Below, piece after piece: positions 13,575 to 61,266 of a DNA stretch of 64,000 nt (its first letter is position 1; every line of letters starts with the position of its first letter). The stretch covers positions 96,001 to 160,000 of the forward strand of contig OX638340.1 of assembly GCA_951812955.1 (NCBI GenBank). The letters run 5' to 3'. The notes under the pieces were generated by a model. It ran no database searches, was not told where the DNA came from, and worked only from the letters and a program-made list of their open reading frames with translations. The position numbers were made by a program, and so were the translations under genes. The DNA comes from an uncultured Gemmatimonadota bacterium (lineage in GTDB: Bacteria > JAAXHH01).

Positions 13575-15221
13575 ATGGCGGAAAACACCGTAGAAGTCCT
13601 GATGATCGAAGACAACCCCGTGCACGTGCAGTTGATCCGCCATTTCATGGATTCCAGCCGGTTGAAGACCCGGCTTCACGTGGCGGGGACGCTCCGGGAA
13701 GGCCTGGACCTGCTCGGGAAGGAAACATTCGACGTGGTGCTGCTCGATCTGGTCCTGCCCGACAGCGCCGACCTCGACACCCTACACAGCGTTCGGTCCG
13801 CCGAACCGGACCTGCCGGTCATTATTCTGACCGGACTGGACGACGTGTCCCTGGCCGCCACGGCCGTGGAGTCAGGCGCACAGGACTACATCGTGAAGAC
13901 CCAGGCCAATACCACCATGCTCTCCCGGTCCATCCATTATGCTATCGAACGCGTACGTGCGCGCATGGGGGAATGGGATTCGGCCATGTTCAAACTGGCG
14001 CAGCAGCAGTTTCTGAAGGCGGCGCAGATCATGGGGCTCGACGAGAACATCCGGGAGCGGCTCCTCTTCCCCCAGCGGACCCACATCGTGACGCTCCCGT
14101 TCCGGCGTGACGAATATCACCTCGTGGAGAACGTATTCGGATACCGCGTGCAACACCTGCTCACCATGGGGCCGACCAAGGGCGGCATACGCTACCACGA
14201 GGACGTGAACCTGGGGGAGGTCTCCGCCCTGGCCATGTGGATGACGTGGAAATGCGCGCTGATCAACCTGCCCTTCGGCGGCGCCAAGGGCGGCGTCCGG
14301 ATCGATCCGACCGACCTGTCCCGCCGCGAACTGCAGCGCCTCACCCGCCGTTTCACGTCGGAAATCATCGACATCATCGGACCGGACAAGGACATCCCTG
14401 CTCCCGACATGGGCACGGACGAGCAAGTCATGGCCTGGATCATGGACACCTACAGCCAGCAGGCGGGTTACACGGTACCGGGCGTGGTCACCGGCAAGCC
14501 GGTCGTGCTGGGCGGCTCCCTGGGACGCCGCGAGGCGACCGGACGCGGACTGGTCTACCTGATCGAGGCGGCAGCGGAACACATGGGCATGTCCCTCGAC
14601 GGCGCCGCGGCCGTGGTCCAGGGATTCGGCAATGTCGGCAGCAATACTGCCCGTTTCCTGGATGAGGACGGCGTCAAGGTGGTCGCCGTGAGCGACGTCA
14701 CCACCGGCATCTACAATCCGAACGGCCTGGTGTTGGCGGACGTCTATAAGTACTGCGGGGAAAACCGCTTCCTCACGGGCTATCCCGAGGCCGACGAGGT
14801 AACCAACGAAGAACTGCTCGAGCTGCCCTGCGACATCCTCGCCCCGGCCGCGCTGCAGAACCAGGTCACCAGCGAAAATGCAGACCGGCTGAAGTGCAGA
14901 CTCCTCGCCGAAGGGGCCAACGGGCCCACCACGCTCGAGGCGGACGAGATTCTCACGGAAAAGGACGTGTTCATCCTGCCGGACGTCCTGGGCAACGCCG
15001 GGGGCGTTACGGTCTCCTACTTCGAGTGGGTGCAGGATACACAAAACTACATGTGGACACTCGAGGAGATCAACGGCAGGCTGCACAATATCCTCATCGA
15101 CGCTTTTGAACGGACCATACACCGGGCTTCCGAGCAGAAGATCGATATGCGTACATCGGCACTGATAGAAGGTATCAGCCGGGTGACCCAGGCGAAACTG
15201 CTTCGGGGCATATTTCCGTAA
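13575..15221 (+). CDS. fusion protein: N-terminal response-regulator receiver (REC) domain plus a complete Glu/Leu/Phe/Val (glutamate) dehydrogenase
   Basis: The REC domain (aa ~5-125) has [21 protein letters not shown] (phospho-acceptor Asp), VIILTG and QDYIVK (conserved Lys). The GDH part has [23 protein letters not shown] (catalytic Lys box) and the QGFGNVG dinucleotide-binding motif. Confidence 0.85.
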
Positions 15222-15252: not shown

Positions 15253-18216
15253 ATGGATTCGACGGAGATTGATGCGACGTGGGTGAGGATTCTTCAGAAA
15301 ACCGCGTACCTCTGCAGCGGGATCGTCATATCGTGCTCCGTGCTCGTACTTATCGGCTGGCAATTAGATATCGCCGAGCTGCGGGGACTGATCAACCCGG
15401 GCCGGGTTCCCATGAACCCGCTCACGGCCGTGGTCTTTTTGCTGGCGGGGTTTACACTGTGCGCCCTGTTGCCGAGAAACGCCCCTTCCCAACGGAGATG
15501 GGCGGGCTTTGCCGGGGCGGGGCTGCTCATGGCCTTCGGCGCCGCCAAGCTCTTCGGACTGGACATCGGCGGCAGGGGCATCGACGAGTGGCTGTTCACG
15601 GCGTCCCTGGGCGGCAGCCGGATGGCCCCACACACCGCCTTTACCTTCATGCTTGTGGGCCTGGCCCTCCTGCTCCTCGACCTGCGCGGCCCAAGACACT
15701 GGCTGTCCCACGTCTGCGTCATGAACGCCGGGATCATCGCCCTCCTTTCTCTGGCCGGCGCGATATACAGCACGATGGTATTATACCGGGTTTCCGGCGT
15801 GATCCCCATCAGCCTGAATACGGCACTGGGCTTCGGCGTGCTGTGCGTCGGCATATTCTGCGCGCGTCCCCGCCGTGAACCGGCGGCCACGCTGGTCAGC
15901 GCAACGGCCGGCGGTATTATGGCCCGCCGCCTGCTGCCCGCGGCCTTCCTCATTCCCATCATCCTGGGCTGGCTCCAGTTCCAGGGAGAAAGAGCGGGAT
16001 TCTATGGGGTGGAGTTCGGCCATTCGATCTTCGTGGTCTGCAACGTGATCGCCTTCAACATCCTGATCTGGTGGAACGCCCGTTCGATCGGTCAGATCGA
16101 CGCGGAACGCACGCGGATCGCCCACGAACTGCATCGCCAAAACGCCCTCCTGGAAAAGACGGCCCACGACATGGTGCTGTTTCAACAGGAACTCCAGGAA
16201 GCCAAGGAGTCGGCCGAGGAAGCCAGCAGGGCCAAAAGCGAGTTTCTCGCCAACATGAGTCACGAGATCCGCACGCCCATCAACGGGATCACCGGCATGA
16301 CCCAATTGATGCTGAACAGCGACCTGTCGCCCAGGCAACGGGAATTCATGCGGTTGATCGATCAGTCCACGGAATCGCTACAGGGCCTGTTAAACGATAT
16401 CCTGGACTTCTCGAAGATCGAGGCGGGCCGACTGGAGCTCGAATCGATCCCCTTCGAATTGCGGGAGCGCATCGCCAATACGGTGCAGGCCATGTCGATC
16501 CCCGCGTCGGAAAAGGGCCTCGAACTGGCCTACCAGGTATCGCCGGACGTCCCCGATCACCTCGTGGGCGACCCGGGCCGTTTGAGCCAGATTGTGATCA
16601 ACCTGGTCGGGAACGCCATCAAGTTCACGGACTCGGGAGAAGTGGTCCTGACCATGGGGCTGGAATCGGAAACGGAAGAAGCCGTGTCGCTGGTCTGCTC
16701 GGTGGCCGACACCGGAATTGGCATCCCGGAGGACAAGCAGCAACTGATCTTCGACGTCTTCAGCCAGGCGGATAGTTCCATGTCTCGGAAATACGGAGGC
16801 ACGGGGTTGGGACTGGCCATCTGCGCGCAGCTGACATCCATGATGGACGGCCGCATATGGGTCGAAAGCGATGTGGAGCGGGGCAGCACGTTTCATTTTA
16901 CCTTCGGCATGAAGAAACAACTCGACGCGGAGAAGAAGGCCGTGTTGGACGCCGAGCCGCTGTCCGGCCTGCGGGTGCTCGTGGTCGACGACCATTCCAC
17001 CAACCGGCGGTTCCTGGTCGACATGCTGACCGAATGGTCCATGAAACCGACGGAAGCCGGCACCGGCGTGGAAACCCTGGCCGCCCTTTCCGGCGATGAT
17101 GGCGATGCCATTCAACTGGTCCTCCTGGACGAAACCATGCCGGAAATGGAGGAATACGGGCTTGTGCGGGAAATCAACCAGTGCGCAGATGGCCGGAGGC
17201 TCGGCGTCATCCTGCTCGTCTCCGCCGGTCAAAGGGAGGATCCGGATAACGGCAAGACTTTCGGAATCGCCTGTACGGTCAGCAAGCCGGTCAAGCAGTC
17301 CGACCTGCTGGACGCCATCATGGATACCGTGGCGGGCACGCGCGAACCCTCAATTGCAAAACACGCCGACGGCGCGGTTGAAGGGCTCGTTCCCCGCCGT
17401 ATCCTCCTGGCCGAGGACGGGATCGTGAACCAGCGCGTCGCGGTGCTCATGCTGGAGTCCAGGGGCCACGCGGTCACCGTGGTGAACAATGGCAGGGAAG
17501 CGGTCGAAGCGTACAAGAACGGGACCTTCGACCTGATCCTGATGGACGTGCAGATGCCCGAGATGGATGGACTGGAAGCGACCCGGACGATTCGCGGCCT
17601 GGAAACCGGAGACGCCCGCACCCCCATCATTGCGATGACGGCCCACGCCATGCGTGGAGATCGAGAGCGGTGCCTTGAAGCCGGGATGGACGAATACCTG
17701 TCGAAACCCATTCAGGCCCAACTGCTCTACTCCGTGGTGGATAACGTTCCGGTTGAGACCAGGGAGGAATCCGGTGATTCCGCTTCCGAGGCGGCACAGG
17801 GTGAGGTCCTGCCTACCGTGGCGGAAGCCGCGCCTTCTGCGCCGCCGGGGGATCCGGCGGCGATCGACTGGGTAAAGGCCGTAGCGCAATTTGACGGAGA
17901 CGAGCAGGTGGCATCGGAACTGGCCGAGCTTTTCCTGACCGAATGCCAGGGGCTTGAAGCCGGTATGCGCGAAGCGCTCGATGCCCGGAATGGCGCCGAC
18001 CTGAGACGGCATGCCCATACATTGAAAGGTTCAGCCGGGATATTCAAGGCACAGGCTGCCGTGTCCGCTGCACAGCGACTTGAAAAGATGGGCAAAGCCG
18101 GGGATTTTACCGGGGCGGAGGAGGCATGGACGGCGCTGGCCGTCGAACTGGACCGGGTGAAGGCGGTCCTCCGGGAACGGGTTGCCGAGGCGAAACAGCA
18201 ATCTGGTCTCGCTTAG
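15253..18216 (+). CDS. hybrid sensor histidine kinase: ~8-TM N-terminal sensor, coiled coil, HisKA, HATPase_c, two REC domains and a C-terminal HPt
   Basis: The H-box is [12 protein letters not shown] and the G-boxes are GNAIKFT and [12 protein letters not shown]1 has VLVVDDH...LVLLDETMP and REC2 has ILLAEDG...[13 protein letters not shown]. The HPt histidine is in [10 protein letters not shown]. Confidence 0.85.
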
Positions 18217-30163: not shown

Positions 30164-30235
30164 CTCCGGGGCCAGGATTCGAACCTGGATAGCCAGAACC
30201 AAAATCTGGTGTCCTGCCAATTGAACGACCCCGGA
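30164..30235 (-). tRNA. tRNA-Gln (anticodon UUG); CCA not encoded
   Basis: Manual fold: acceptor TCCGGGG/CCCCGGA, D-arm GTTC-AATTGGCA-GGAC, anticodon stem CCAGA/TCTGG with loop TTTTGGT, T-arm CCAGG-TTCGAAT-CCTGG. Confidence 0.85.
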
Positions 30236-30239
30236 TTAT

Positions 30240-30590
30240 TCACGGTCCGGTCGGTGTCACGGACCGTAAGACTTCCACTTGCGAGGCGATCTCGCACGCC
30301 CCCGTTTCCGCATCTCTTTCAGCCCGGTACCGGAGCACGGTGTCGGCGGTGATTTCCAGTGTGTCACGTGCGACGCCTGAACAGGTGGGCGATTCCACCG
30401 ACATGATCTGGGTCCCGGCCTTCACGGATCGGAACTCCGTATACGCGCCTACCGGCAGTCCCCTCGTATCACCCGCCAGGTCGACCCGAATGGCTTCGGT
30501 ACTTTCCAGTGTATTGTAAACGGTCAGTACGAAGGAGTCTCCGCCCCCGCAGGAGGCGTACAGAAATGCCGTGACGAACAGGGCAAACAT
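30240..30590 (-). CDS. small lipoprotein of unknown function
   Basis: Signal peptide with lipobox MFALFVTAFLYASCGG. The start was set at the internal Met. Confidence 0.45.
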   Translation of the reverse strand: MFALFVTAFLYASCGGGDSFVLTVYNTLESTEAIRVDLAGDTRGLPVGAYTEFRSVKAGTQIMSVESPTCSGVARDTLEITADTVLRYRAERDAETGACEIASQVEVLRSVTPTGP

Positions 30591-30927
30591 GCTGCCGGCT
30601 CGTCTGGGTGCAGACCCTGATCCTTCGATTCCATCCATGACTGTACCCGAGACCGTTCCGTCGGGTGCTTTGCGCAAACACCGGGCACCTTCCCCACGGC
30701 GCGGCTTCCGACAGTTTCCTGCGCACCGAGATTCCTGCGGTGCGGCTCAATCTACCCGGACCGGTGCCGTATGTCAATCGGAAGTTGACCGCCAGACCGC
30801 GTAGACCGGCGGCCTGCCTTGGCCCTCTGACCGGCGGCCAGCCTGGGCCTGCGATGACCGTACCTGCGTTCCCGTTATGACCGTACCCCGGTTCCCGCGT
30901 TCGCCCGTGTCCCCGGGCGTAAACAGC

Positions 30928-30956
30928 TTGACAGGATCTCTGATCGATTGTAAAAT
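30928..30956 (+). promoter_or_regulatory. sigma70 promoter of the SBP-HK-RR operon
   Basis: TTGACA-17nt-TAAAAT, about 55 bp upstream of the ATG at 31012. Confidence 0.5.
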
Positions 30957-31011
30957 GTTGGTACTCACACGTTTCCCTCCTACACATAGTGGTACTTCAG
31001 GCGGTATTTTC

Positions 31012-32658
31012 ATGCTGAAGGCACGGCATTTCCCGGTCAATCACCTGTTTGCCTGCACGTTGATGCTGGGACTGTCCCTTTTGTCCAGGCCTGATGCGGC
31101 ACGCGGTCAGAGTCCGGAGCAGCAGGTCCGCCCGGTCCTGCAAGGCGGTACGGTCACCATCGGCAAAGTGGCCGCAGGGGATCTCACCTTCCACCCCCTG
31201 TTCAACAGCCTGGGGGTGGAGAGAGAAATAGCCTCGTTGATCTACGGGGAAGGCCTGCTTCGCGTAGATGATTCAGGCATGCCTGCGGACGGGCTGGCCT
31301 ATCTGCCCATTAAGCTCTCAGGCGGCCGCGATTGGGTGTTCCGGCTCAAGCAGGATATTGAATTCCACGATGGGGAGCCGTTGACCGCCGCCGACGTGAT
31401 CTTCACGTACACCCGGTACAAGTCCTCCAGGGTATATGATCCCGTCTTTCACCGATATTTCCAAAACATCGAGCGGATAACCGCCCTCGATCGACAGACG
31501 GTCCGGATCATCATGAAGTCGCCGATCGAATCTTTTCCCAATCGGCTGGCGGCCCTGCCCATTTTGCCCGGGCACCAGATGGGCCGCGGCCTTTTCGCCG
31601 ACGCCGGTGCGCATCTGGAAACGACCCGCCCCATCGGACTGGGACCTTACCGCGTCGAGTCATGGCCCGTCAGCGATACGGTGACGCTCGCGGCCAACGA
31701 AAGCTGGCACCGGGGCCGCGCGAATCTGGACAGGGTGGTTTACCAATTCTACCCTACTTCAGAGTCCCTGCAGGCGGCCTTTATCGTGCGGGAGGTGGAT
31801 CTTATCGAGGTGGAACGAGACGGCACGTTGAAGGAACTGAAGCGGGCCCGTTCCGATGCGAGGATACAGGCGATCGTGCCTGGCAGCCGCGCTTTCTCCG
31901 CGGTCTTCTACAATAACCGGCATCCGATTCTTTCTAACACGGCTATCCGACGCGCGCTGACCTATGCCACGAACCGTCAGCGAATACTGGACGAGGTGCT
32001 CGTACGTGGTGCGGGTGTGCTTGCCCAGAGTCCCATTCACCCGAATTTCGAGTTCAAGGGCGGCGACATGGGATTCGATTTCCGTCCGCGCGAAGCTCGC
32101 GAACTGCTGCGTCTCCAGGGCTGGGAGGACAGCGACGGCGACGGGTTCCTCGACCGGCAAGGTCGTTCCCTCCGGTTCGAGCTGCTGTTCTCCAGGGGGC
32201 AGACTTCCGCCGAGAAGACGGTGCGGGTCGTCAAACTGAACCTGAACCAAATCGGCATCCAGGTCGTTCCCGTGCCCGTTACACAGAAAGAACTGGTCCA
32301 GCGGCTTGGTGTCGGCAGCTACGACGCTGCGCTGTTCGTACAGGACTTCGAACCCACAGCGGATGATCTCTACGCGGTCTTCCATTCGGAGAGCATCGGG
32401 CTGGGGAATATGCTCGGATACCGGAACCGCCAGGTCGACCGCAATATCAGTTTCCTGTTCGGGCTGCCCGACCGGCAACGGGCCGGACCCGTCTTCCAGC
32501 AGCTCGAGATGCTGTTGATTCGGGACCAGCCTTGCATGTTCCTCTATTTTGTCGACACCCGGTACGTCGCGTATGATCCCACCTTGAAAAACCTGGGCCG
32601 CCCGGGTGAAGCGCTGCGGTCGCCCGCGGTCTGGTCCCGTACCGAATACTCCCCTTGA
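31012..32658 (+). CDS. ABC-type solute-binding protein, family 5 (peptide/nickel/opine SBP fold)
   Basis: Signal peptide MLKARHFPVNHLFACTLMLGLSLL followed by the SBP_bac_5 architecture. No permease or ATPase genes follow. Confidence 0.8.
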   Translation: MLKARHFPVNHLFACTLMLGLSLLSRPDAARGQSPEQQVRPVLQGGTVTIGKVAAGDLTFHPLFNSLGVEREIASLIYGEGLLRVDDSGMPADGLAYLPIKLSGGRDWVFRLKQDIEFHDGEPLTAADVIFTYTRYKSSRVYDPVFHRYFQNIERITALDRQTVRIIMKSPIESFPNRLAALPILPGHQMGRGLFADAGAHLETTRPIGLGPYRVESWPVSDTVTLAANESWHRGRANLDRVVYQFYPTSESLQAAFIVREVDLIEVERDGTLKELKRARSDARIQAIVPGSRAFSAVFYNNRHPILSNTAIRRALTYATNRQRILDEVLVRGAGVLAQSPIHPNFEFKGGDMGFDFRPREARELLRLQGWEDSDGDGFLDRQGRSLRFELLFSRGQTSAEKTVRVVKLNLNQIGIQVVPVPVTQKELVQRLGVGSYDAALFVQDFEPTADDLYAVFHSESIGLGNMLGYRNRQVDRNISFLFGLPDRQRAGPVFQQLEMLLIRDQPCMFLYFVDTRYVAYDPTLKNLGRPGEALRSPAVWSRTEYSP

Positions 32659-34538
32659 CGACGCGCAAATCCATGTTTCCCAGAAAGTTACGAGAAGGGC
32701 TGTGGCCGCGGCTGCTCGTATCCCATATCGCGCTGGCCACCATTCCGGTGCTGATCGTCGGTCTGCTTCTGCTCGCGACGGCCCGTCGTTCGATCGAAGA
32801 TACGGTGGCCGACGGCAATCTCGAGGTCGCGCGCAGGGCGAGTAACGAGATCCGGTTGTATATCGAACAGGCGCGGCGCGTGATCGACCAGGCCGCGGAC
32901 AACATGGATATGATCGATGCAACGGACGCGGTGTACCAGAAGCTGATCGACAATCTGGTCATCCGGCAGGATTTCCTCAGCGAGCTGTCCGTGCTGGATC
33001 TGGCGGGGCGGGAGAAACTGACCACCCGCCTCGAAGGACCGTTGCGCGCGCGGCCGGACCTGGAACTCCCGGAGGACGGAGATCCCACGGTCTCCCCGGT
33101 GTTCATTTCAGACGATGGCCTGCCTGCGGTGACGATCTCCGTGCCCGTGCGGCGTTTAGGCGAGCACTCGGGATACCTTGCCGCGCGGGTGAACCTGAAG
33201 GACATGTGGGACCTGGTGGACAACATTAAACTGGGGGAGGGACAAAGGGAAGGCTTCGGCAACGCTTACGTCGCGTCCGGAAACGGGCGCCTGATCGCCC
33301 ATCCGGAACGGGACCGTGTATACCGTCAGGACGACCTGTCCGGTTCTCCCGTCGGCACGGCGCTGAGTGAACGGCAGAGCGGCGCGCTGGTCTACACCGG
33401 GCCGGCGGGTGAGATGGCCGCCGCTTTCGCGACCGTCGAACCGCTCGGGTGGAAGGTCGTCATCGAACAACCGGCCGCCAGCGCCTTCGCCCGGTCACGC
33501 GATATGATCCTGGGCATCAGCGTGCTCATGGCCATCAGCGCGGCGGTCGCATCCCTGATCGGTATTCTCGTCGTCCGGAAGATCGTCCGACCAATCTACG
33601 AACTGGTGCGCGGCGCGCAATTATTCGCGCAGGGCAGGTTGACCCATACCATTGAAACGCCGGGGCATGGAGAACTGACTGCGCTCGCGCGCGAGTTCAA
33701 CCAGATGGCCCGCGAGTTGATGGAGAAGGAACGCCGCCTGAAACAGGCCGAGCGCCTGGCTACCCTGAGCAAGTTTGCCACCATACTGTCTCACGAAATC
33801 CGCAACCCGCTTAATTCCATGATCATCAACCTCAGGATTCTCAAGCGGGACATGGAGAATCAGAACGGCGATCAACAAAACCGCGGCGGTCACTATGAAA
33901 AAGTAATATCGGAAATCTGGCGCATAGACAGTCTCGTCGAGAATTTCCTGAATTACGCCCGGCCGCCGGAACTGGCGCCTTACCCCCACGACATAAACGT
34001 GATCCTCGACGAGGTGATCGCGATCCACCAGGGTACGGCACAGGAAAGGGGCGTCCGGATCATTACCCGGTTCCGGGACGGCGAGCTGATGGTATCCGTC
34101 GACATCAACCAGATCAAGCAGGTGTTCTTGAACATCATGCTCAATGCATTCGATGCCATGGAGCACGGCGGTACGCTGACGATTTCCACGGAACGGGCGC
34201 CGCCCCGCAACAGTAGCGATCTGACCCTGGAAGCCGTCGGCGAAGTCCCCCATGTCATCATAAAATTCGAAGATACGGGAAGGGGTATTGATCCCGACCG
34301 GCTGGACCGTATATTCGAGGTGTACTACACGTCCAAGTCGACCGGGACGGGACTGGGCCTGCCCATCGCCCAGCAGATCGCGGAGAAGCACGGAGGCGGG
34401 ATCTCGGTCGAAAGCACGCCGGGCGAGGGGACGGCCTTTACGCTGGCCCTTCCGGCGCTGGGGGCGGATGCGGCAGGGCCCTCCACCGGACAACCTTCCG
34501 AAACCACAGGGACGGAGCAGCCCGGCCAGCGGGACTAG
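32655..34538 (+). CDS. sensor histidine kinase (2 TM, periplasmic Cache-like sensor, HAMP, HisKA, HATPase_c)
   Basis: The H-box is LSHEIRNPLNSM, and GTGLGLPIA lies in the ATPase domain. The start overlaps the SBP stop, indicating translational coupling. Confidence 0.85.
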   Translation: MTTRKSMFPRKLREGLWPRLLVSHIALATIPVLIVGLLLLATARRSIEDTVADGNLEVARRASNEIRLYIEQARRVIDQAADNMDMIDATDAVYQKLIDNLVIRQDFLSELSVLDLAGREKLTTRLEGPLRARPDLELPEDGDPTVSPVFISDDGLPAVTISVPVRRLGEHSGYLAARVNLKDMWDLVDNIKLGEGQREGFGNAYVASGNGRLIAHPERDRVYRQDDLSGSPVGTALSERQSGALVYTGPAGEMAAAFATVEPLGWKVVIEQPAASAFARSRDMILGISVLMAISAAVASLIGILVVRKIVRPIYELVRGAQLFAQGRLTHTIETPGHGELTALAREFNQMARELMEKERRLKQAERLATLSKFATILSHEIRNPLNSMIINLRILKRDMENQNGDQQNRGGHYEKVISEIWRIDSLVENFLNYARPPELAPYPHDINVILDEVIAIHQGTAQERGVRIITRFRDGELMVSVDINQIKQVFLNIMLNAFDAMEHGGTLTISTERAPPRNSSDLTLEAVGEVPHVIIKFEDTGRGIDPDRLDRIFEVYYTSKSTGTGLGLPIAQQIAEKHGGGISVESTPGEGTAFTLALPALGADAAGPSTGQPSETTGTEQPGQRD

Positions 34539-34556
34539 TCGAAACAGGGGTATTTA

Positions 34557-35906
34557 ATGGAACGCATCCTGATCGCGGAAGACGACCGGAACACCCGGGA
34601 AGGACTGGTGGAACTGCTATCGGGCGAGGGGTACGAAGTGACGGGTGTGGCGGACGGTGAGCAGGCCTATGAAACGGCCCGGAACGACCGATTCGACGTT
34701 TTGCTCACAGATATGAAAATGCCACGGATCAACGGACTAAACCTGATCAAGCGCATGACCGGCACCTCTCCGGAGACGAGTATCATCATGATGACGGCCT
34801 TCGCCACGGTCGAGACGGCTGTAAAGGCCATGCGCGACGGCGCCTTTTCCTACCTGACCAAGCCGGTCAAGGTCGAGGAACTGCTCGCCACCATCGAAGG
34901 GGCGCTGCAGGAGAAGAAGAACAAGCGGCGCGCTGAAGGGTCGCCCGGGTCTTCGTCCATCCCCGATCCGGACATCATTGGCGAAAGCGTCCAGATCAGA
35001 GGTATTTTCGATCGGGTGGACAAGGTCGCCAGGGCCAATACCACGGTCCTGCTGCTTGGCGAGAGCGGTACGGGCAAGAGCCTGATCGCCCGGGCGATAC
35101 ACGCCAGGAGCTTTCGAAAGGACCGGCCGTTCGTGGATGTGAGTTGCGCCTCGATTCCTGAAAGCCTGCTTGAAAGCGAACTCTTTGGTACCGAAAAAGG
35201 GGCGTACACCGGTGCGCTCAGCACGACGCGCAAGGGGTACTTCGAGCGAGCGGCCGGAGGAACGATATTTCTGGACGAAATCGGCGAAATAACCGGTAGC
35301 GTTCAGGTTAAGCTGCTGCGCGTACTGCAGGAACGCCGGTTCGAAAGACTCGGCGGAACCGAACCGCTGAATATCGACGTCCGCGTGATCGCGGCCACCA
35401 ACCGGAACCTGGAGGACGCGGTTACGGAAGGGCGTTACCGGCAGGATCTCTACTACCGCTTGAACGTCATCCCCATTCTCGTTCCTCCCCTGCGCGAGCA
35501 TCCGGACGACATCCCGCCCCTCATCGACTATTTCATCCGGAAATACACGCGGGAGAACGGGCTCGAAGACAAATACATCACCGACGACGCCCTGGAGATC
35601 TGCACGAAGTACGACTGGCCCGGAAACATCAGGGAAGTGGAGAACGCCATCGAAAGCGCCGTAGTATTGAGTGACGGCGAACGCATCCTGCCGGAACATC
35701 TGCCCGATTTCCACCATGCTCCGGCGGCCGTTTCAAGCGCGGGGCCCGTACAGGGTACGCTCAAGGACACCAGGGGACAGGCGGAGAAACGCCTCATTCA
35801 ACAGGCGCTGCTGGAGTCGGGCGGCAATCGAACGCGCGCGGCGGAAGCCCTCGGGGTGACGGTCAGGACCATCCAGTACAAGATCAAGAAATACGATCTT
35901 CAGTGA
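34557..35906 (+). CDS. sigma54-dependent response regulator (NtrC family: REC, AAA+ sigma54 activator, Fis-type HTH)
   Basis: REC with DVLLTDMKMP. Walker A is GESGTGKS, the GAFTGA-type loop reads GAYTGA (in ESELFGTEKGAYTGA), and RRFERLGG is present. A C-terminal HTH is also present. Confidence 0.9.
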   Translation: MERILIAEDDRNTREGLVELLSGEGYEVTGVADGEQAYETARNDRFDVLLTDMKMPRINGLNLIKRMTGTSPETSIIMMTAFATVETAVKAMRDGAFSYLTKPVKVEELLATIEGALQEKKNKRRAEGSPGSSSIPDPDIIGESVQIRGIFDRVDKVARANTTVLLLGESGTGKSLIARAIHARSFRKDRPFVDVSCASIPESLLESELFGTEKGAYTGALSTTRKGYFERAAGGTIFLDEIGEITGSVQVKLLRVLQERRFERLGGTEPLNIDVRVIAATNRNLEDAVTEGRYRQDLYYRLNVIPILVPPLREHPDDIPPLIDYFIRKYTRENGLEDKYITDDALEICTKYDWPGNIREVENAIESAVVLSDGERILPEHLPDFHHAPAAVSSAGPVQGTLKDTRGQAEKRLIQQALLESGGNRTRAAEALGVTVRTIQYKIKKYDLQ

Positions 35907-35967
35907 CGAACCTTCCGGAGGGACGCCATCCGTCGACCGGGATAGCGCTTACAGTCGGTACCGGGTA

Positions 35968-36864
35968 ATGGAATCGAAAACCCTCGCCGTATCCGTCGTG
36001 ATGCCCACGTATAATCGTGAGGAAAGACTGCCGGCGGCGATCCGTTCCGTCCTGGAGCAGTCGTCGCCGCCGTCGGAGATCGTCGTGATCGACGATGGTT
36101 CGACAGACGCGACTCCGGCTCTCATGGAGCGATTTCCAGACGAATTTGCCTCGGAGGGAACTCCGGAAGTACGGTACATCCGGCAGGAAAACCAGGGCGT
36201 CAGCGTGGCCAGGAACCACGGCATCCGCGCTGCGAAGCACGATTGGATCGCCTTTCTCGACTCGGACGACGAATGGCTTCCCCACAAGCTGGAGAAGCAG
36301 TGCCGCGCCCTTGCACGCGAGCCGGGATTCCGGTTCTGCCATACCGACGAAATCTGGATCCGCAAGGGCAGGCGGGTCAATCCCATGAAGAAGCATGCCA
36401 AGTCCGGGGGCCGAATCTTCAACCAGTGTCTGCCCCTGTGCGTCATCTCCCCTTCTTCGGCGCTGATACATCGAACCCTGTTCGATCGCTACGGCATGTT
36501 CGATCCGGAACTGCCGGTGTGCGAAGACTACGACCTGTGGCTGCGCATCTGTGCGCGTGAACCCGTACTCTATATCGACGAACCCCTGCTGAAGAAGTTC
36601 GGCGGCCATGATGACCAGTTGTCGCGCCGTTACTGGGGCATGGACCGTTTCCGCATCCGTGCGCTGGAGAAGCTGATTCAAAGCGGCATACTGGAAGGAG
36701 ATGCACTGTCCGCCGCGCTGGATACCCTATACCGGAAAATCGACATTTACGTTGCCGGCGCGGAGAAGCGACGCAAATTCGAGGAAGCCGACCGCTACAG
36801 GGACAGGAAACGTCAATTCAAACAGCAATTTGAAGCATGCTACGACGGGACATCGGACGGCTGA
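35968..36864 (+). CDS. family 2 glycosyltransferase
   Basis: VVMPTYNREERL...VIDDGSTD...FLDSDDEW, i.e. the GT2 DXD architecture. Confidence 0.8.
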   Translation: MESKTLAVSVVMPTYNREERLPAAIRSVLEQSSPPSEIVVIDDGSTDATPALMERFPDEFASEGTPEVRYIRQENQGVSVARNHGIRAAKHDWIAFLDSDDEWLPHKLEKQCRALAREPGFRFCHTDEIWIRKGRRVNPMKKHAKSGGRIFNQCLPLCVISPSSALIHRTLFDRYGMFDPELPVCEDYDLWLRICAREPVLYIDEPLLKKFGGHDDQLSRRYWGMDRFRIRALEKLIQSGILEGDALSAALDTLYRKIDIYVAGAEKRRKFEEADRYRDRKRQFKQQFEACYDGTSDG

Positions 36865-36992
36865 CTATACGCAAAACCTTTCACATCGTTCTGAAGGGGT
36901 TTTCCTGTTATTGCCCGAGACTCGCGCGGTTCGGTCCCTGAATTCCTGTTGTTTGGCCGGTCCGGGCCGAAAACACCGGTCCTGAATACCTG

Positions 36993-37010
36993 TCGGCATG
37001 TTATTTGCGA
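36993..37010 (+). promoter_or_regulatory. sigma54 (-24/-12) promoter upstream of the TonB-dependent receptor gene
   Basis: cGGCATG-ttat-TTGCg compared with the consensus TGGCACG-N4-TTGCW. The GG-N10-GC spacing is exact, and the element lies about 95 bp before the ATG. Confidence 0.5.
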
Positions 37011-37103
37011 ACTTTTATGATTACGGGTGATCTTTAATAGACGCGTACTGGCCATTACGCTATGTCGCGGGTACTGCGCACCCGGGTCCGTTTTGCCTGT
37101 TGA

Positions 37104-39719
37104 TTGGGAGAGATGATGAAGCGCCTCGCTACGCTGTTCATCCTTTACTGCGGTCTTGCTTCGTTTTCGGCGCATGCGGCTACCTCCGGCAAAGTCACGG
37201 GATTCGTCCGGGACGCGGCGACCAACGATCCGCTGGCGGGTGTCACGGTTCGCGCCGAAGGTACCGAATTGCGGGCCATATCCGGCTTGAACGGCGAGTA
37301 TTTCATCCTCAACGTTCCAGTAGGCTCCATCCGGCTCGAAGTCCAGATGATCGGTTACCTGCCAATCCGGACACAGGAGTTTACCGTTAACAGCGATCGC
37401 ACCACGCGGATCGATTTCGAACTGGAAACGACGATACTCGACCTGGCAGAGCCCGTTGCCATCACCGCGCCGAGGACCTCGATCCGGTCGGACCTGACCG
37501 CTTCGAGTGAAGTGATCGTTCCCCGTGAAATCGAGTCTCTGCCCGTAACGGATCTGTCGGACCTCATCTTTCTGCAGAACGGGGTGGTCCGGGATGCCGA
37601 AGGGAACCTGCACGTTAGAGGCGGCCGCGGGAACGAGATCTCCTATTACGTGGACGGAGCCACCCTGGAGGATCCCCTGCTGGGCGGCATGGGAACGCAT
37701 ATTCAGCTAGGCTCGGTCGAGGAACTGGTAATCAACCGGGGCGGTTTCAACGCGCAGTACGGGGAGGCCATGTCCGGTGTCGTCAATATCGTGACCCGCG
37801 AGGGAAGCGGTTCCCTGTCTGGTACCCTCAGGGCCGCGACGGCCATGCAGTCTCAATACGACCTGGCGTCGGGAGGCTTCGGCGAAACTTCGGCGGGAAG
37901 AGGTGGGCGCCTCGAGGGAATACTGAGCGGCGCGCTGCCCTGGCTCAAAGACCGTGGCGGTTACTTTCTTTCCGGCCAGGTATTGAGCGACGGGCACCAT
38001 ATCCCGCACAACAGCCGATCTCTGGCCACGGTGGCGGGCAACCTAGTGTTCAAACCCTATCCCCTAATGAAACTGAAGGTCAGCGGGCATTACTTCCGTC
38101 AGCGCCATCTTCAGTACGACCACCGCAATGAAAATGGACTATCCTACGATTTCAACCCGGACGGGCTGCCCGAACGACAGGCCCGGAGCCACGCGCTTAA
38201 CCTGTCCGTCAGCCAGAACATCAGCCCGCGTTTCTTCTATACTGCCCGGTTCTACAGGTATTCCACCAACAGCACGCTGCTCCCCTCCATGCTTACGGAC
38301 CGGTATTGGACGCAGTGGCCGGGCTACTCGCAAAACAGTCTCGGCGAGTACGACGGATCGATCTATGAATCCACCCAACTGCCCTCGGAACGATACGAGG
38401 GACTTCCCTTTACCGCTGCAGGCGATTTCTTCCCGCTCTACCGGGATACCCGGGCTACGTACCACGGGGTCCGGGCCGACCTGAGCGGTCAGATAACCTA
38501 TTGGAGCCAGATCCGGGCGGGCGCCGAAGCGCAGTGGTACCGGCTGAACTGGGACGAGAGGTCCTTTCTTCAGGCCGCGCCGCACGGCCAGAGATACTCC
38601 GTCAATCCCGTGGAAGGCGCGCTTTACTTTCAGAACAAGCTTGAAATGAGCAGGTTGATCGTCGACGCCGGACTCCGGGTGGACTACCTGGACACGAGCC
38701 AGCGGTTTTTTGTCGATCTGCCCACGGGCCAGGCGGAGCGAAGAGACAACTCGACCAAGATCCGGCTGAGTCCCCGGCTCGGTGTTTCCCACTCATTTAC
38801 GCCACGGAGCCTGCTCCGGTTCAATTACGGTTACTTCTACCAGCCGCCCGAGTTCCGGCTCGCTTACGCGAACTTGAGACGCGACTTCAGCGGAGATTCC
38901 CCGCGGCTGGGAAACCCGGACCTTGCGCCCCAGAAGACGGTGGCCTATGAGTTCGGGCTGGAGCATATGCTTACAGGGGACGTCCGCATCGGGTTTACGG
39001 CGTCCTACAAGACCATTTCCAACCTGACCTCGACGGCACAGGTCCAGTACCCCGGTGGGATGTATTACATCTTCAACAACGCGGACTTCGGCTCCGTGCG
39101 CAGCGTCGAACTGATCGTGAAACGGGACGTGTCGCGCGTGCTTTCCGGGTCCTTCAACTACACCTATTCCATCGCCCGGGGAAGCGCTTCGTCGCCCCAG
39201 GAGCACGCGCAGCAGGCCGATACCGGCGAGAGAGGCTATTTCCCGCTCGCTTTCGACCAGCGGCATACTGCGAAAGCCGTGATGAGCCTGCTTGCGCCCG
39301 AGACCATCCAGCGGCGCATCCTGGGCGTTCCGCTCAACGGATGGGGGTTGTCTATGATCGGCTACTTCGGCAGCGGCCTGCCGTACACGCCGACCAACAC
39401 CTTGCGCGAAAGTACGGCAACCGCACGGAACCAGGCGCGCCTGCCGGCCTTTGTCAATCTTGATCTCCGCGTTAAAAAGCGTTTCAAGGCCGGCGGATTC
39501 AGTTACACGCTGTTCTCGGAGGTCCGGAACGTGTTCGATCGCCGGAATGTCGTAAGCGTTTATGCCAACACGGGACGTCCGGGGGACGACGGATACACCC
39601 TGGAATCATTCTCGGGCCGTTCGGAGGAGTTTATCCGGTTGAGGCGCCTGTTGAGCCTGGATCCCCAACAGTACGCCCCACCCCGAGAAATCCGCATGGG
39701 TTTCGAAATAGGCTTCTGA
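37104..39719 (+). CDS. TonB-dependent outer-membrane receptor with an N-terminal carboxypeptidase-regulatory-like (CarbopepD_reg) domain
   Basis: Signal peptide, then GKVTGFVRDAATNDPLAGVTV (Cna-B/CarboxypepD fold), a plug domain, a 22-strand barrel and a C-terminal aromatic ...FEIGF. Confidence 0.85.
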   Translation: MGEMMKRLATLFILYCGLASFSAHAATSGKVTGFVRDAATNDPLAGVTVRAEGTELRAISGLNGEYFILNVPVGSIRLEVQMIGYLPIRTQEFTVNSDRTTRIDFELETTILDLAEPVAITAPRTSIRSDLTASSEVIVPREIESLPVTDLSDLIFLQNGVVRDAEGNLHVRGGRGNEISYYVDGATLEDPLLGGMGTHIQLGSVEELVINRGGFNAQYGEAMSGVVNIVTREGSGSLSGTLRAATAMQSQYDLASGGFGETSAGRGGRLEGILSGALPWLKDRGGYFLSGQVLSDGHHIPHNSRSLATVAGNLVFKPYPLMKLKVSGHYFRQRHLQYDHRNENGLSYDFNPDGLPERQARSHALNLSVSQNISPRFFYTARFYRYSTNSTLLPSMLTDRYWTQWPGYSQNSLGEYDGSIYESTQLPSERYEGLPFTAAGDFFPLYRDTRATYHGVRADLSGQITYWSQIRAGAEAQWYRLNWDERSFLQAAPHGQRYSVNPVEGALYFQNKLEMSRLIVDAGLRVDYLDTSQRFFVDLPTGQAERRDNSTKIRLSPRLGVSHSFTPRSLLRFNYGYFYQPPEFRLAYANLRRDFSGDSPRLGNPDLAPQKTVAYEFGLEHMLTGDVRIGFTASYKTISNLTSTAQVQYPGGMYYIFNNADFGSVRSVELIVKRDVSRVLSGSFNYTYSIARGSASSPQEHAQQADTGERGYFPLAFDQRHTAKAVMSLLAPETIQRRILGVPLNGWGLSMIGYFGSGLPYTPTNTLRESTATARNQARLPAFVNLDLRVKKRFKAGGFSYTLFSEVRNVFDRRNVVSVYANTGRPGDDGYTLESFSGRSEEFIRLRRLLSLDPQQYAPPREIRMGFEIGF

Positions 39720-56510: not shown

Positions 56511-57767
56511 ATGCTCTTCAACGTCGAACGTGCAACGGAGTACATGCGAGATTGCGGTCTCGATGCGCTGGTCGCGACTTCGCCCGTTAATATCACCTAT
56601 TTCACGGGTTATTTCATCTGGATCGACGGGCTCATGAAGGAGTACATGGTCAGCCCCGGCGGTTCAGCGGATATAGCGCAGGGATACGCGCTGTTTCCGG
56701 CCGACGGCGAGCCCGCTCTGGCGGTTACCGGATCGATGCTGGCCGTCAACGGCGTGGACCTCCGGGTCCGTGATCTCAGGGTAAGCGGCGACTCCGGTTT
56801 GGACTGGTCGCTGGCGCCTCGGTCGCTGTCCGGCCGAATGAACCGGGTGTACGCCCTTGTGAAGGATGCGCCGGGTTACGGCACGACTACCGAGGCACTC
56901 GCCGGCGCCCTGAGCGACCGGGGACTTGCGAGCGGGACACTGGGCGTGGAAGCGGACGGGATGACCGCCGGCCGGTACGCGCAGCTGCGCCGGACGCTCC
57001 CTGACGCCCGGCTGCTCGATTGCTCGAACCTCATACGGCTGCTCCGCATGGTCAAGACCGGCGACGAGATCGATCGGCTCGTGCAGGCGGCGGAAATCAG
57101 CGAGACGGCGGCCATGTCGGCCATGGAACAGGCGCGACCGGGCGACAACGTGCAGGACGTCATCCGCCGGTTCAGAGCGGAGTTGGGGGGCCGGGGGGCG
57201 GACCTGGATCATTTCGCCTTCGGGGTCCACGGACTGGGTATCGCGACGGAACCGGATTTCATCCTGGGAGAAACCGACGTGGAATATGTGGACTGGGGAT
57301 GCAGGTACCGCTCGGTTTATTCGGATACCGGGACCACTTACGCCATGCGGCCCTTGTCCGGGGACATGCAAGGCCGGTTCGAAGTGCTCCGCGCGTCCAT
57401 GGACGCCGGCCTGGCGGCCATACGGCCCGGAGTCCTTTCCTCGACGGTCCAGGCGGCGATGCAGGACGTGGTGGACGATGCCGGCATGGCCATGTATCCT
57501 CACGGTCACGGGGTCGGCATGGAAGTGCGAGACTACCCCATCCTGGCGCCGGATAACGGCCTGAGGATCGCCGATGACTGCGTGGATGTTCCGTCCGACC
57601 TGGTCATCGAAGAAAACATGGTGCTTAACGTGGAAGCGCCGCTCTGCCTGGCGGGGGTCGGTTCCCTGCACCTGGAACAGTCCGTCGTCGTGACGGATAG
57701 CGGGTCTCGTCCTCTCGTCGAGCAGCAACGGGAGCGGCCGGTGTTTCCCCTCGGCGCCTCGACGTAG
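56511..57767 (+). CDS. M24-family metallopeptidase (creatinase/Xaa-Pro dipeptidase type) with a creatinase_N domain
   Basis: The N-terminal domain begins ALVATSPVNITYFTGY, and the C-terminal pita-bread fold carries HGHGVGMEVRD. Confidence 0.8.
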   Translation: MLFNVERATEYMRDCGLDALVATSPVNITYFTGYFIWIDGLMKEYMVSPGGSADIAQGYALFPADGEPALAVTGSMLAVNGVDLRVRDLRVSGDSGLDWSLAPRSLSGRMNRVYALVKDAPGYGTTTEALAGALSDRGLASGTLGVEADGMTAGRYAQLRRTLPDARLLDCSNLIRLLRMVKTGDEIDRLVQAAEISETAAMSAMEQARPGDNVQDVIRRFRAELGGRGADLDHFAFGVHGLGIATEPDFILGETDVEYVDWGCRYRSVYSDTGTTYAMRPLSGDMQGRFEVLRASMDAGLAAIRPGVLSSTVQAAMQDVVDDAGMAMYPHGHGVGMEVRDYPILAPDNGLRIADDCVDVPSDLVIEENMVLNVEAPLCLAGVGSLHLEQSVVVTDSGSRPLVEQQRERPVFPLGAST

Positions 57768-57813
57768 GAGATGGGAAGTACTTAATCGGCAGCGACCTCG
57801 AAATCGGCATCCT

Positions 57814-58839
57814 ATGAAAATAACAGGGATCCAACTTCATCAGCCCGCGGGCCTGCTTCGTTTGCTTACCAACGCCGGGCTCGAGGGGCACTGTACGGGG
57901 GTTGCCGCATTGGGGCACGACGTCGATCGCGTGGCATCCATCCTGGTGGATACGAACCCCGTAGACCGGGAACGGACCTGGTGGGCGATGAAGGATCCGG
58001 GTGAAGGGTTGTCCGCATCCCTTCGCGCCGGGATCGACGTTGCCCTGTGGGACCTTTCCGCGAAGATCGCGGGCCGGCCGCTGTTCAGGCACCTGGGCGG
58101 ATTCAGGGCCCGCGTCCCAGTCTGCCGGGCTGGTACGGCGTCAGGCACTGATCGGACTGATCGGGCCCCCTCCGAGATCGTCCGGGAAGCGAAAGACGCG
58201 CGGCAGGCCGGGTTCGGAGCCTATCGATTCGGCATGCGGACCGACGAGACCTCGCTGATCCAGCTGATACATGAAGTGCGGGCGGCCGTGGGTCCGGAGT
58301 TCCCGTTGGTGCTCGACGGCCAGGCCCGGTGCGTAATCGACGAGGCGATACGAATCGGCAGGGCGCTCGACGAGGCGGATTATTTCTACTTCGACCGTCC
58401 CCGTCCTCCCGGAGATCACTCCGGCGGGAAACAGGTGGCCGGTGAGATCGATACGCCGACCAGCACCGAGGTGTCCAGTCCCATTGCGGCGTCTCAGGTC
58501 ATGTCGGCCGGGTCTGCCGATCACATTCGCACCGACGTGCTAAGTTGCGGCGGCTTGACGGACGTGTTGAAGTCGGCCCGCTGCGCCGAGGCCTTTGGCG
58601 CCTACTGCCATCTGCGCGGTTTCGGGATCTGTGACGGTTTCGCCCATCTGCATCTGGCCGGCGCCCTCAGAAACACGCCCTTTATCGAGATGACGGAACT
58701 CGAGACTGCATCGCCTTTTGTTCGAAACCCACCGCGGGCTGACGGCGGGTTTGTCCAATTGCCCGATCTTCCGGGCCTCGGGATGGAAGTCGACCTGGAC
58801 GCGGTAATGGATAGTACATCGGAATTGATCGAAGCATGA
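57814..58839 (+). CDS. enolase-superfamily (mandelate racemase / muconate lactonizing enzyme-like) protein
   Basis: N-terminal capping-domain motif IDVALWDLSAK. Several canonical barrel ligands appear to be substituted (DGQ and DRP where D and EEP are usual), so it may be divergent or inactive. Confidence 0.55.
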   Translation: MKITGIQLHQPAGLLRLLTNAGLEGHCTGVAALGHDVDRVASILVDTNPVDRERTWWAMKDPGEGLSASLRAGIDVALWDLSAKIAGRPLFRHLGGFRARVPVCRAGTASGTDRTDRAPSEIVREAKDARQAGFGAYRFGMRTDETSLIQLIHEVRAAVGPEFPLVLDGQARCVIDEAIRIGRALDEADYFYFDRPRPPGDHSGGKQVAGEIDTPTSTEVSSPIAASQVMSAGSADHIRTDVLSCGGLTDVLKSARCAEAFGAYCHLRGFGICDGFAHLHLAGALRNTPFIEMTELETASPFVRNPPRADGGFVQLPDLPGLGMEVDLDAVMDSTSELIEA

Positions 58840-58892
58840 TCGAAGCATGATCGAAGCACGATCCGAAGTACGATCAGGGATTAAGGAATACC

Positions 58893-60083: not shown

Positions 60084-60116
60084 CCCGGGTTACCAACCGA
60101 ATCACCAATATGTGGA

Positions 60117-61112
60117 GTGAACATGACTGAGAAAATACGTTGGGGCATACTCGGAACGGGCGCCATTGCCCACAAGTTCGCGGAAGCCATGGAATTCGTT
60201 CCGGATGCGGAAGTGGCGGCGGTGGGGTCGAGGGCGCGTAATACGGCGCACGCTTTCGCCGACGAGTTCGCGATACCCGGGAGGCACGAATCCTACCGGG
60301 CCCTGGCGGAAGCCCCGGATGTCGACGCGATCTACGTGGCCTCCCCGCATCCCATGCACCACGATCACACGCTGCTGTGCCTGAACGCGGACAAGGCCGT
60401 GCTTTGTGAGAAACCCTTTGCCCTCAACGCCGGGGAAGCAGAATCCATGGTTCATTGCGCAAGAGACCGGGGCCTTTTCCTCATGGAGGCCATGTGGACT
60501 CGGTATCTGCCCGCGATCGCGCAGGTACGCCGGTGGCTCGCTAAGGATGCGATCGGCGAAGTGCGCTTGATGATGGCCGATTTTGGATTCCGCGCGGGGT
60601 TCAACCCGGAAGGCCGGCTGCTGAATCCGGTGCTGGGCGGCGGTGCCCTTCTCGACATCGGCGTCTACATTGTCTCGCTGGCCTCCATGGTCTACGGAGC
60701 GCAGCCGACCCGCATCACCGCGCTCGCGGATATCGGCGAAACCGGCGTGGATGAGCAGACCACCATGGCATTTCGCTACGGTTCGGGCGCCATGGCTTCC
60801 CTGTCCTGCGCGATCCGGACCGACACGCCCAGGGATGTCCGGATCCTGGGAACAGGGGGCAGCATCCATATCCCGGCGCCCTTCTATGACGCCTGCATCG
60901 CGACGCTGAACGCGGACGGCGAAGAGCAGGTTACGGCCGAGCCCGACCGTGTGGAGAACGGATTCAAGTACGAGATCGAGGAAGCGGGCCGGTGCCTGCG
61001 GGAAGGGCTGCTCGAGAGTCCCGCGCTCCCGTTGGACGAGACCCTGGCCATCATGCGGACCCTGGACGCCGTCCGGGCGGAGATCGGGTTGGAATACCCA
61101 ATGGAGGCGTGA
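60117..61112 (+). CDS. Gfo/Idh/MocA-family NAD(P)-dependent oxidoreductase
   Basis: IRWGILGTGAIA Rossmann N-terminus and EKPFALN motif. Confidence 0.8.
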   Translation: MNMTEKIRWGILGTGAIAHKFAEAMEFVPDAEVAAVGSRARNTAHAFADEFAIPGRHESYRALAEAPDVDAIYVASPHPMHHDHTLLCLNADKAVLCEKPFALNAGEAESMVHCARDRGLFLMEAMWTRYLPAIAQVRRWLAKDAIGEVRLMMADFGFRAGFNPEGRLLNPVLGGGALLDIGVYIVSLASMVYGAQPTRITALADIGETGVDEQTTMAFRYGSGAMASLSCAIRTDTPRDVRILGTGGSIHIPAPFYDACIATLNADGEEQVTAEPDRVENGFKYEIEEAGRCLREGLLESPALPLDETLAIMRTLDAVRAEIGLEYPMEA

Positions 61113-61190: not shown

Positions 61191-61266
61191 ATCCGGGTAC
61201 ACTTCACCCCACATTACCGTATCATTGAAATCTAGCGGTGTACCATTGAAATATTGAGGAGCCCCA

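Follow-up and report, generated by a model that had tools for sequence, protein, structure and literature searches.

We analysed a 64,000-nucleotide (nt) stretch of DNA from an uncultured Gemmatimonadota bacterium (contig OX638340.1, positions 96,001 to 160,000; the whole stretch is hereafter called the window) and found, between its positions 30,928 and 39,719, a conserved set of genes arranged as a four-part substrate-sensing circuit would be. The four parts are a periplasmic family-5 solute-binding protein (SBP), a membrane histidine kinase, an NtrC-type sigma-54 response regulator and a TonB-dependent receptor (TBDR), the gene of which the regulator would switch on. Judging from sequence comparison, we place the probability of this circuit as a whole at roughly 60%. 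Within it, the link from the regulator to the TBDR is well supported by conserved sites, and a role of the SBP as a periplasmic co-sensor, similar to that of TorT, LuxP or ChvE, appears plausible. We advance more tentatively, at slightly short of even odds, the narrower proposal that an AppA-like SBP gave up transport and is now the dedicated receptor of a dCache kinase whose only local output is a sigma-54-gated TBDR. The original prediction, made by a model from the letters of the window, had described essentially this system, and it was largely right apart from two wrong coordinate details. The features of the locus are as follows.

30877-32658, plus strand: open reading frame (ORF) of the SBP_bac_5 protein, from Pfam.
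30928..30956, plus strand: predicted sigma-70-type promoter of the sensor operon, TTGACA-17 nt-TAAAAT, from a consensus scan and conservation.
31012..32658, plus strand: orphan periplasmic family-5 SBP of 548 amino acids (aa), AppA-like, with a predicted signal peptide, from Pfam (SBP_bac_5) and homologue lengths.
32673..34538 (ORF 32655-34538), plus strand: membrane histidine kinase with a transmembrane segment, a periplasmic dCache_1 domain, a second transmembrane segment, HAMP, HisKA and HATPase_c, from Pfam.
34557..35906, plus strand: NtrC-type response regulator (bacterial enhancer-binding protein) with a receiver domain, an AAA+ sigma-54 domain and HTH_8, from Pfam.
35968..36864, plus strand: family-2 glycosyltransferase (GT2), from Pfam (Glycos_transf_2, 1.1e-37).
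36870..36905, no strand assigned: two tandem 14-bp dyads, candidate upstream activator sequences, from a pattern scan and conservation.
36994..37009, plus strand: predicted sigma-54 (-24/-12) promoter of the TBDR gene, cGGCATG-TTAT-TTGCg, from sequence and conservation.
37113..39719 (ORF 37104-39719), plus strand: TBDR with a predicted signal peptide, an N-terminal CarboxypepD_reg domain, a Plug and a beta-barrel, from Pfam.

Pfam searches confirmed the whole of the proposed gene content, namely a family-5 SBP, a Cache/HAMP kinase, a sigma-54 activator, a GT2 and a TBDR with a CarboxypepD_reg domain, and the gap between the kinase and regulator genes was 18 nt, as claimed. The SBP had also been described as lacking an ABC permease or ATPase. 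This held true in a scan of nearly all larger ORFs of the 64-kb window, where neither was found, and the same scan of the window revealed no second activator gene.

Relatives of the module were collected in a scan of one genome per species, which gave 53 loci, with tblastn searches using the window proteins; metagenome look-ups added loci L054/L055 and L058. We found the order SBP, kinase, regulator, (GT2), TBDR to be kept in all 26 related loci that reach the TBDR gene or its upstream region (23 from genome contigs together with L054, L055 and L058; SBP identity 52-99%), and a TBDR orthologue was present in every locus reaching that far. The complete order with GT2 was seen by tblastn in 20 loci with SBP identities of 63-99%, and L054/L055 (60%) also contained GT2, whereas L023 (52%), L026 (57%) and L058 (55%) did not. 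A still more distant locus, L028 (38% SBP identity), retained the SBP, kinase and regulator genes before its contig ended. On the complete chromosome OY762445.1, the SBP-to-TBDR region encoded proteins 92-99% identical to those of the window. Metagenome-assembled genome (MAG) labels of the loci included Latescibacterota and Gemmatimonadota, and the samples were marine, sponge-named or from groundwater.

The GT2 gene was found in relatives with at least 60% SBP identity (L019, L054). It appears to be dispensable, because in L023, L026 and L058 the TBDR gene stands straight after the regulator gene, and in terms of gene order it is an accessory passenger of the sensor operon and not a core part. 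The genes flanking the module varied in distant loci and included MutY, a sulfatase, a major facilitator superfamily (MFS) transporter, an M28 peptidase and others. Since these flanks differ between distant loci, the conserved unit would be exactly SBP, kinase, regulator, (GT2) and TBDR.

A near-consensus -24/-12 element had been reported near positions 36995-37008, upstream of the TBDR gene. The string and its spacing were correct: the sequence cGGCATG-TTAT-TTGCg at 36994-37009 showed the exact 12-nt GG-to-GC spacing when compared with the TGGCAC-N5-TTGCW consensus. Within the window alone the element did not rise above chance, as GGCA-N6-TTGC occurred twice against 1.97 expected, and the 16-mer consensus with up to three mismatches gave 73 matches against 85 expected. 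Because these window-only statistics were not significant, we turned to a comparative analysis of the relatives, which revealed [CT]GGCA[CT]-N5-TTGC on the correct strand upstream of the TBDR gene in 27/27 regions (the 26 loci and the window). The sites of distant relatives, TGGCACGGATTTTGCT in L054, TGGCACAGTATTTGCG in L026 and TGGCATATATTTTGCT in L058, were nearer to the textbook consensus than that of the window. In unrelated loci the same pattern gave only 9 matches in 420 kb over both strands, which is a background rate of about 1e-5 per strand-nucleotide, or about 0.003 expected per 250-nt region. Additionally, the alignment of the intergenic region had a mean column identity of 37%, in which GG, the A at the fourth position and TTT were invariant and the C at the third position and GC were nearly so; the invariant or nearly invariant columns thus coincided largely with the GG, CA and TTTGC positions of the element. 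On the grounds of its presence in 27/27 regions, the low background and its conservation amid poorly conserved intergenic DNA, we conclude from the comparative sequence data that the -24/-12 element is real.

In L013, L014 and L015 the pattern [CT]GGCA[CT]-N5-TTGC also matched within the first codons of the SBP gene (position 10013); this is probably a chance occurrence, because it lies in coding sequence and is not conserved elsewhere. We also observed a block, ACGGRTGATTGTAT, at about 37030-37045, roughly 25-40 nt downstream of the -12 element and within the predicted TBDR leader. This block was kept in the close clade (at the same position in L003-L022) and was not seen in the distant loci. 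A search for Rfam families with E values of up to 1 gave no match in the TBDR leader or in the spacer between the GT2 and TBDR genes.

Upstream of the promoter, two dyads of the TGCAA-N4-TTKCA type, CGCAAAACCTTTCA (36870-36883) and TGAAGGGGTTTTCC (36892-36905), begin 6 nt past the GT2 stop codon. Their centres are 22 bp apart, and the dyads stand 124 and 102 nt ahead of the -24 element; in the relatives, the dyads were found 101-186 nt upstream of the promoter. The repeated pattern TG[CA]AA-N4-TT[GT]C[AC] with a spacer of 6-11 nt gave 22 matches in the 992 kb of the loci and the window, and all of them were at this same position, including those of L023 and L026, which lack GT2 and in which the dyads follow the regulator gene. 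L054/L055 likewise contained the tandem dyads and L058 showed a near-match, and the 64-kb window contained no second tandem copy. We favour reading the dyads as candidate binding sites of the activator that might also serve as a weak terminator.

The regulator showed the features expected of the NtrC family, with Pfam matches to Sigma54_activat (1.1e-67), Response_reg, AAA_lid_14 and HTH_8. Its phospho-acceptor context, VLLTDMKMP, was conserved, and its sigma-54 contact loop was GAYTGA, also conserved, with GAFTGA in L054 and L028; the Phe-to-Tyr variant of GAFTGA is functional. In the NCBIfam comparison it remained below the equivalog cut-offs of AtoC (471.7 against 714 bits), NtrC (417.1 against 558.6 bits) and ZraR (390.4 against 760 bits). 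The claim that the cognate sigma-54 regulator switches on the TBDR gene is strongly supported by these comparisons, as the module, the promoter and the dyads occurred together in every locus reaching the TBDR gene and the GAYTGA/GAFTGA loop was kept.

The target gene encodes a protein with the domains of a TBDR: Plug (31 bits against a threshold of 23.9), OMP_b-brl_3, OMP_b-brl_4 and an N-terminal CarboxypepD_reg domain, preceded by a signal-like N-terminus (MMKRLATLFILYCGLASFSAHA). The ORF opens with TTG 37104; we found ATG 37113/37116, behind GGGAGAG, to be the most likely start. Membership in the SusC/RagA class was not supported, given that TIGR04056 scored 52.8 bits against a cut-off of 368, in the N-terminal region only, and that no SusD-like gene adjoins it. 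Only 10 nt separate the TBDR stop codon from the end of a convergent glyoxalase gene, and because this gene lies so close the TBDR transcript is predicted to be monocistronic.

The start of the SBP gene had been assigned to TTG 30928. This TTG is instead part of the -35 hexamer of a TTGACA-17-TAAAAT promoter at 30928-30956, which is conserved across the relatives, scores 11/12 in the consensus scan and ends 56 nt ahead of the SBP start. In L017 (71% identity), as in all close relatives, the sequence GCTTGACAG...TAAAAT was kept 5' of the SBP gene, and TTGACA was also present upstream of this gene in L023. We place the SBP start at ATG 31012, because the length that follows agrees with that of database homologues (545-563 aa, 100% coverage); this ATG also opens a signal-peptide-like N-terminus. 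Autoregulation of the sensor operon was considered and rejected, as neither a dyad nor a -24/-12 match was found upstream of the SBP gene.

The SBP matched SBP_bac_5 with a Pfam E value of 4.6e-61 (207 bits) and, in a structural model, showed the two-lobe fold of family-5 (cluster C) proteins. Its closest solved relative by sequence was AppA of B. subtilis, which binds oligopeptides (1xoc, E 3.3e-52), and the next match was at 6e-26. The predicted structure (mean predicted local distance difference test score 75.7) likewise overlaid best on AppA 1xoc, with template modelling scores of 0.76/0.82, closely followed by binders of nickel/metallophores, opine-like compounds, sialic acid and chito-oligosaccharides. 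The structures 1zu0 and 5yqw of the chito-oligosaccharide binder CBP were among the fold matches, and CBP is about 17% identical to the window SBP. None of the named SBP5 equivalogs (Opp4A, NikA, DppA, OppA, CntA) was reached: the best, Opp4A, scored 107.7 bits against a cut-off of 650, and the others were far under theirs. An oligopeptide or a similar molecule is our best guess for the ligand. The SBP family is sharply bounded, with identities of 52-99% within it and then a drop to less than 30%. In all three of the loci examined with such SBP5 relatives of less than 30% identity (L030, L041, L044), the gene adjoins BPD_transp_1 permeases, and no BPD_transp_1 or ABC_tran gene was found in the window or beside the SBP gene in the family loci. 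The lack of adjoining permeases fits an SBP dedicated to signalling, and a permease elsewhere in the genome would be compatible with the same gene order.

The original prediction had coupled the SBP and kinase genes through a start/stop overlap at TTG 32655. This TTG is absent in L007, L016, L017, L019, L023, L026 and L028, and the overlap proved to be an artefact of ORF calling. The conserved start of the kinase gene is ATG 32673 (opening with MFPRKLREGLWPRLL in the close clade), 14 nt past the SBP stop codon; the corresponding distance is 14-17 nt in the close-clade loci and larger, up to about 21 nt, in the distant loci. Translational coupling through the overlap was rejected, as the overlapping TTG is not conserved and the downstream ATG is. 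The two genes are tightly linked though not overlapping. A kinase orthologue follows the SBP gene in every family locus long enough to show it, at SBP identities of 38-99% (L056 ends 28 nt past the SBP stop codon and is excepted from this count). A homologue search with the kinase sensor domain returned 7 matches and missed known orthologues. The genes of SBPs that act on kinases typically stand beside signalling genes, and there are precedents for kinases stimulated by an SBP: the SBP_bac_5 protein CBP with the dCache-like ChiS, and AioX with AioS/AioR (PMC8050422).

In the circuit that we propose, a constitutive promoter of the sigma-70 type would drive a sensor operon comprising the SBP, the dCache_1 kinase, the NtrC-type activator and, in this lineage, the passenger GT2. 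The SBP would capture a periplasmic ligand, most likely oligopeptide-like, and dock on the dCache_1 domain of the kinase, shifting its kinase/phosphatase balance. The phosphorylated regulator would oligomerise on the two dyads about 100-125 bp upstream of the -24/-12 promoter and open the sigma-54 holoenzyme complex with ATP. That promoter would transcribe a single gene, encoding the TBDR, which would raise the outer-membrane uptake of the sensed substrate and close a positive, substrate-induced loop. If this is true, the circuit possibly adjusts, in sponge and marine habitats, how much peptide of host or prey origin is taken up.

Several points weigh against the proposed circuit. The kinase has a ligand-binding dCache_1 domain of its own (Pfam 1e-21), and the SBP is perhaps not needed for sensing. 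Nothing encoded nearby would take the putative ligand across the inner membrane, and rpoN was not found in the scan of nearly all larger ORFs of the window; the intact enhancer-binding protein with its GAYTGA loop is indirect support for rpoN in the genome. The TBDR is without a characterised close relative, and a search of solved structures with it gave only generic Plug or carboxypeptidase-domain matches, with no clue to the substrate; we infer import rather than export. The same loci served to derive the dyad pattern and to count it, and most of these loci are close kin. Furthermore, a weak hairpin with a U-run behind it can be drawn from the dyads of the close clade, and compensatory changes in this hairpin, two in number, were found in a single lineage, L017.

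The main rival, which we consider unlikely but which carries more weight than any other, holds that the kinase senses its ligand directly through dCache_1 while the SBP is merely co-expressed and feeds an Opp/Dpp-type permease encoded elsewhere, as in the case of MppA; the regulator would still drive the TBDR gene. The dCache_1 match noted above is to a bona fide ligand-binding domain, the modelled SBP fold is that of a normal cluster-C transport protein, and the end of the window contains a second SBP_bac_5 gene (62241-63953). Because this second gene adjoins peptide-catabolism genes, conventional peptide ABC systems probably exist in the genome. However, the adjacency of the SBP and kinase genes, with a gap of 14-70 nt, is invariant over 38-99% identity while all other flanking genes change, and members of this SBP clade were never seen beside permeases, whereas the distant relatives were. 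In published systems, moreover, SBPs encoded beside kinases serve in signalling (PMC8050422). These points favour the SBP as co-sensor.

It is also conceivable, but quite improbable, that another enhancer-binding protein serves the TBDR promoter, that the adjacent regulator controls other genes, and that the gene neighbourhood reflects shared ancestry. Sigma-54 activators are able to act on distant targets, binding of the regulator to the dyads is a prediction, and common descent links most of the loci. Nevertheless, in L023, L026 and L058 the dyads (a near-match in L058), the promoter and the TBDR gene stand straight after the regulator gene despite the missing GT2 and the differing flanks, and the window holds neither another activator gene nor another tandem copy of the dyads. 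Control of the TBDR gene by the adjacent regulator thus remains the reading that we prefer.

Still less probable is that the barrel protein is an Oar-like TonB-dependent exporter or surface-assembly component, so that the circuit and GT2 would control protein or glycan secretion in response to a periplasmic cue. The TBDR has a partial match to OMP_b-brl_4 (PF25183; 35.7 bits), a family that presumably includes Oar of Myxococcus. Myxococcus Oar is needed for the secretion of PopC. The position of GT2 between the regulator and barrel genes in most loci would also suit this explanation. Against it, GT2 is dispensable and belongs to the sensor operon, ahead of the sigma-54 promoter, the Plug and barrel are those of a standard importer, and no gene for a secretion substrate is linked. 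We accordingly retain uptake as the more probable function of the TBDR.

Finally, we compared the dyad block with an intrinsic terminator. The terminator scan listed CCTTTCACATCGTTCTGAAGGG followed by GTTTTCC, and 84% of the cells in the hairpin alignment could pair, yet the closing pair was broken in 10/15 sequences. The stability of the hairpin was no better than that of shuffled sequence in 8/8 loci (z -1.5 to +0.7), and the predicted folds differed between loci. The observed covariation score was reached by 11/500 shuffles. The invariant left half of dyad 1 (GCAA) falls outside the stem. The conserved block was therefore rejected as an intrinsic terminator and kept as a minor rival. A Bacteroidetes-type sigma-A promoter (TAnnTTTG) overlapping the -12 region was likewise rejected on inspection, as the invariant bases are GG/CA/TTTGC with no conserved TA; it is also disfavoured because this lineage uses the canonical TTGACA/TAAAAT for the sensor operon. 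We give the least credence of all to the combined explanation, in which 36870-36905 is only a terminator, the -24/-12 element does not work and the TBDR gene is read from a sigma-A promoter of this kind or from a sigma-70-type promoter such as the 9/12 match that the scan gave at 36993-37021, since the TATGAT of that match is not conserved and the invariant bases are sigma-54 contacts and not a TA-containing -10 or -7 box.

Upstream of the sensor operon, the window encodes a methylmalonyl-CoA mutase, a Cys/Met pyridoxal phosphate (PLP) enzyme, tRNA-Gln and a small lipoprotein-like ORF. This ORF (30240-30593, minus strand; MFALFVTAFLYASCGGG...) adjoins the tRNA-Gln gene (anticodon TTG; 30164-30235, minus strand) and has its own conserved, divergent TTGACA-type promoter at 30777-30749. 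It was considered as a part of the module and left out, because its conservation does not reach beyond the close clade, whose SBPs are at least 71% identical to that of the window. A divergent sulfatase gene was observed upstream of the module in the distant marine members L019 (1763-3208), L023 (4288-5667), L054 (2231-3607) and L057 (7257-8639), with an MFS transporter gene near it in L023, L054 and L057. This sulfatase is not in the window; it could hint at sulfated substrates or reflect mere synteny.

We also noted other signalling and transport genes. The region 13575-15221 (plus strand) encodes a response-regulator receiver fused to a Glu/Leu/Phe/Val dehydrogenase (548 aa), which, from its domains, could be an amino-acid dehydrogenase controlled by phosphorylation, and directly after it a hybrid histidine kinase with two receiver matches and an Hpt domain is encoded at 15253-18216 (plus strand). 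At 56511-63953 (plus strand), an M24 prolidase-like peptidase, two enolase-superfamily (MR_MLE) genes and an aldo-keto reductase precede the second SBP_bac_5 gene (62241-63953). A conventional peptide ABC operon that runs off the window may begin in this region, a possibility that bears on the inner-membrane route for a peptide ligand. Among the distant relatives, L041 (6464-15650, an Acidobacteriota MAG) and L044 (10001-19300, a Bacteroidetes MAG) contained an SBP5 gene followed by two BPD_transp_1 permeases, a Ser/Thr kinase of about 1240 aa with AAA_16 and TPR domains and a sigma-54 activator, with TGGCAC-N5-TTGC just downstream; this arrangement may represent a different SBP-linked sigma-54 circuit. 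In L036 (10001-14685, a Terriglobia MAG), a gene for a membrane HAMP / HD_5 (HD-GYP-like) protein is preceded, at a distance of about 1 kb that includes a small ORF, by a distant SBP5 gene; the pair is another candidate for SBP-coupled signalling.

We found no description in the literature of this gene combination or of sigma-54-controlled TBDRs in these phyla. The locus is a previously undescribed combination of well-known parts, and because every element has a well-known precedent it overturns no principle and is best seen as a fresh instance of a regulatory design already known. With it, the SBP-dependent two-component systems, so far a short list, would gain a member that has a family-5 (peptide-type) SBP and a classical sigma-54 output, and the locus would suggest that TonB-dependent outer-membrane uptake can be gated by such a circuit in poorly studied, uncultured phyla. 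The locus also offers a compact set of testable parts (a promoter, two candidate activator sites and a single target gene) that could be rebuilt heterologously to find the TBDR ligand.

In the arsenite-sensing AioX-AioS-AioR system of Agrobacterium and Rhizobium, AioR is an NtrC-type sigma-54 regulator that activates a nearby target. This system shares with the locus a signalling-dedicated SBP encoded with a kinase that has a Cache-like sensor (PMC8050422). In contrast to the window proteins, AioX belongs to the Phosphonate-bd family and not to SBP_bac_5, and the target is the aioBA oxidase and not an outer-membrane transporter; the design is shared, with no detectable orthology. The CBP-ChiS pair, which senses chitin oligosaccharides in Vibrio, is similar in that the kinase, which has a dCache-like periplasmic domain, responds to an SBP_bac_5 protein (PMC8050422). 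It differs in that CBP also feeds an adjacent ABC transporter and that ChiS is a DNA-binding hybrid kinase without a sigma-54 regulator.

TorT and LuxP are Peripla_BP_4-type SBPs, and the TorT-TorS, LuxP-LuxQ and ChvE-VirA systems use hybrid kinases with sigma-70-dependent outputs. We know of no sigma-54 promoter and no TBDR target in any of the three. They resemble the locus in that the binding protein is the ligand-loading partner of a sensor kinase and its gene is linked to signalling genes, whereas the SBP family of ChvE is also different, being of the Peripla_BP_4 type (PMC8050422). The best NCBIfam matches included AtoS-AtoC and ZraS-ZraR, which share the kinase core and the regulator architecture (AtoC 471.7 and AtoS 197.5 bits). 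The window kinase and regulator are not AtoS/AtoC orthologues, because these scores are well under the equivalog cut-offs (714 for AtoC and 646 for AtoS); AtoS and ZraS also differ in having no SBP partner and no dCache_1 sensor.

The hybrid two-component systems of Bacteroides, such as BT1754 with its periplasmic binding-protein-like sensor domain, sense an imported breakdown product and induce a SusC-type TBDR. In these systems the sensor, kinase, receiver and DNA-binding domain are fused, the output does not depend on sigma-54 and the TBDR is paired with SusD. The window, in contrast, has separate genes and no adjacent SusD-like gene. If the proposed circuit is true, the locus would be a split-gene, sigma-54 counterpart of the hybrid-sensor/SusC logic of Bacteroidetes in uncultured lineages labelled Latescibacterota or Gemmatimonadota.

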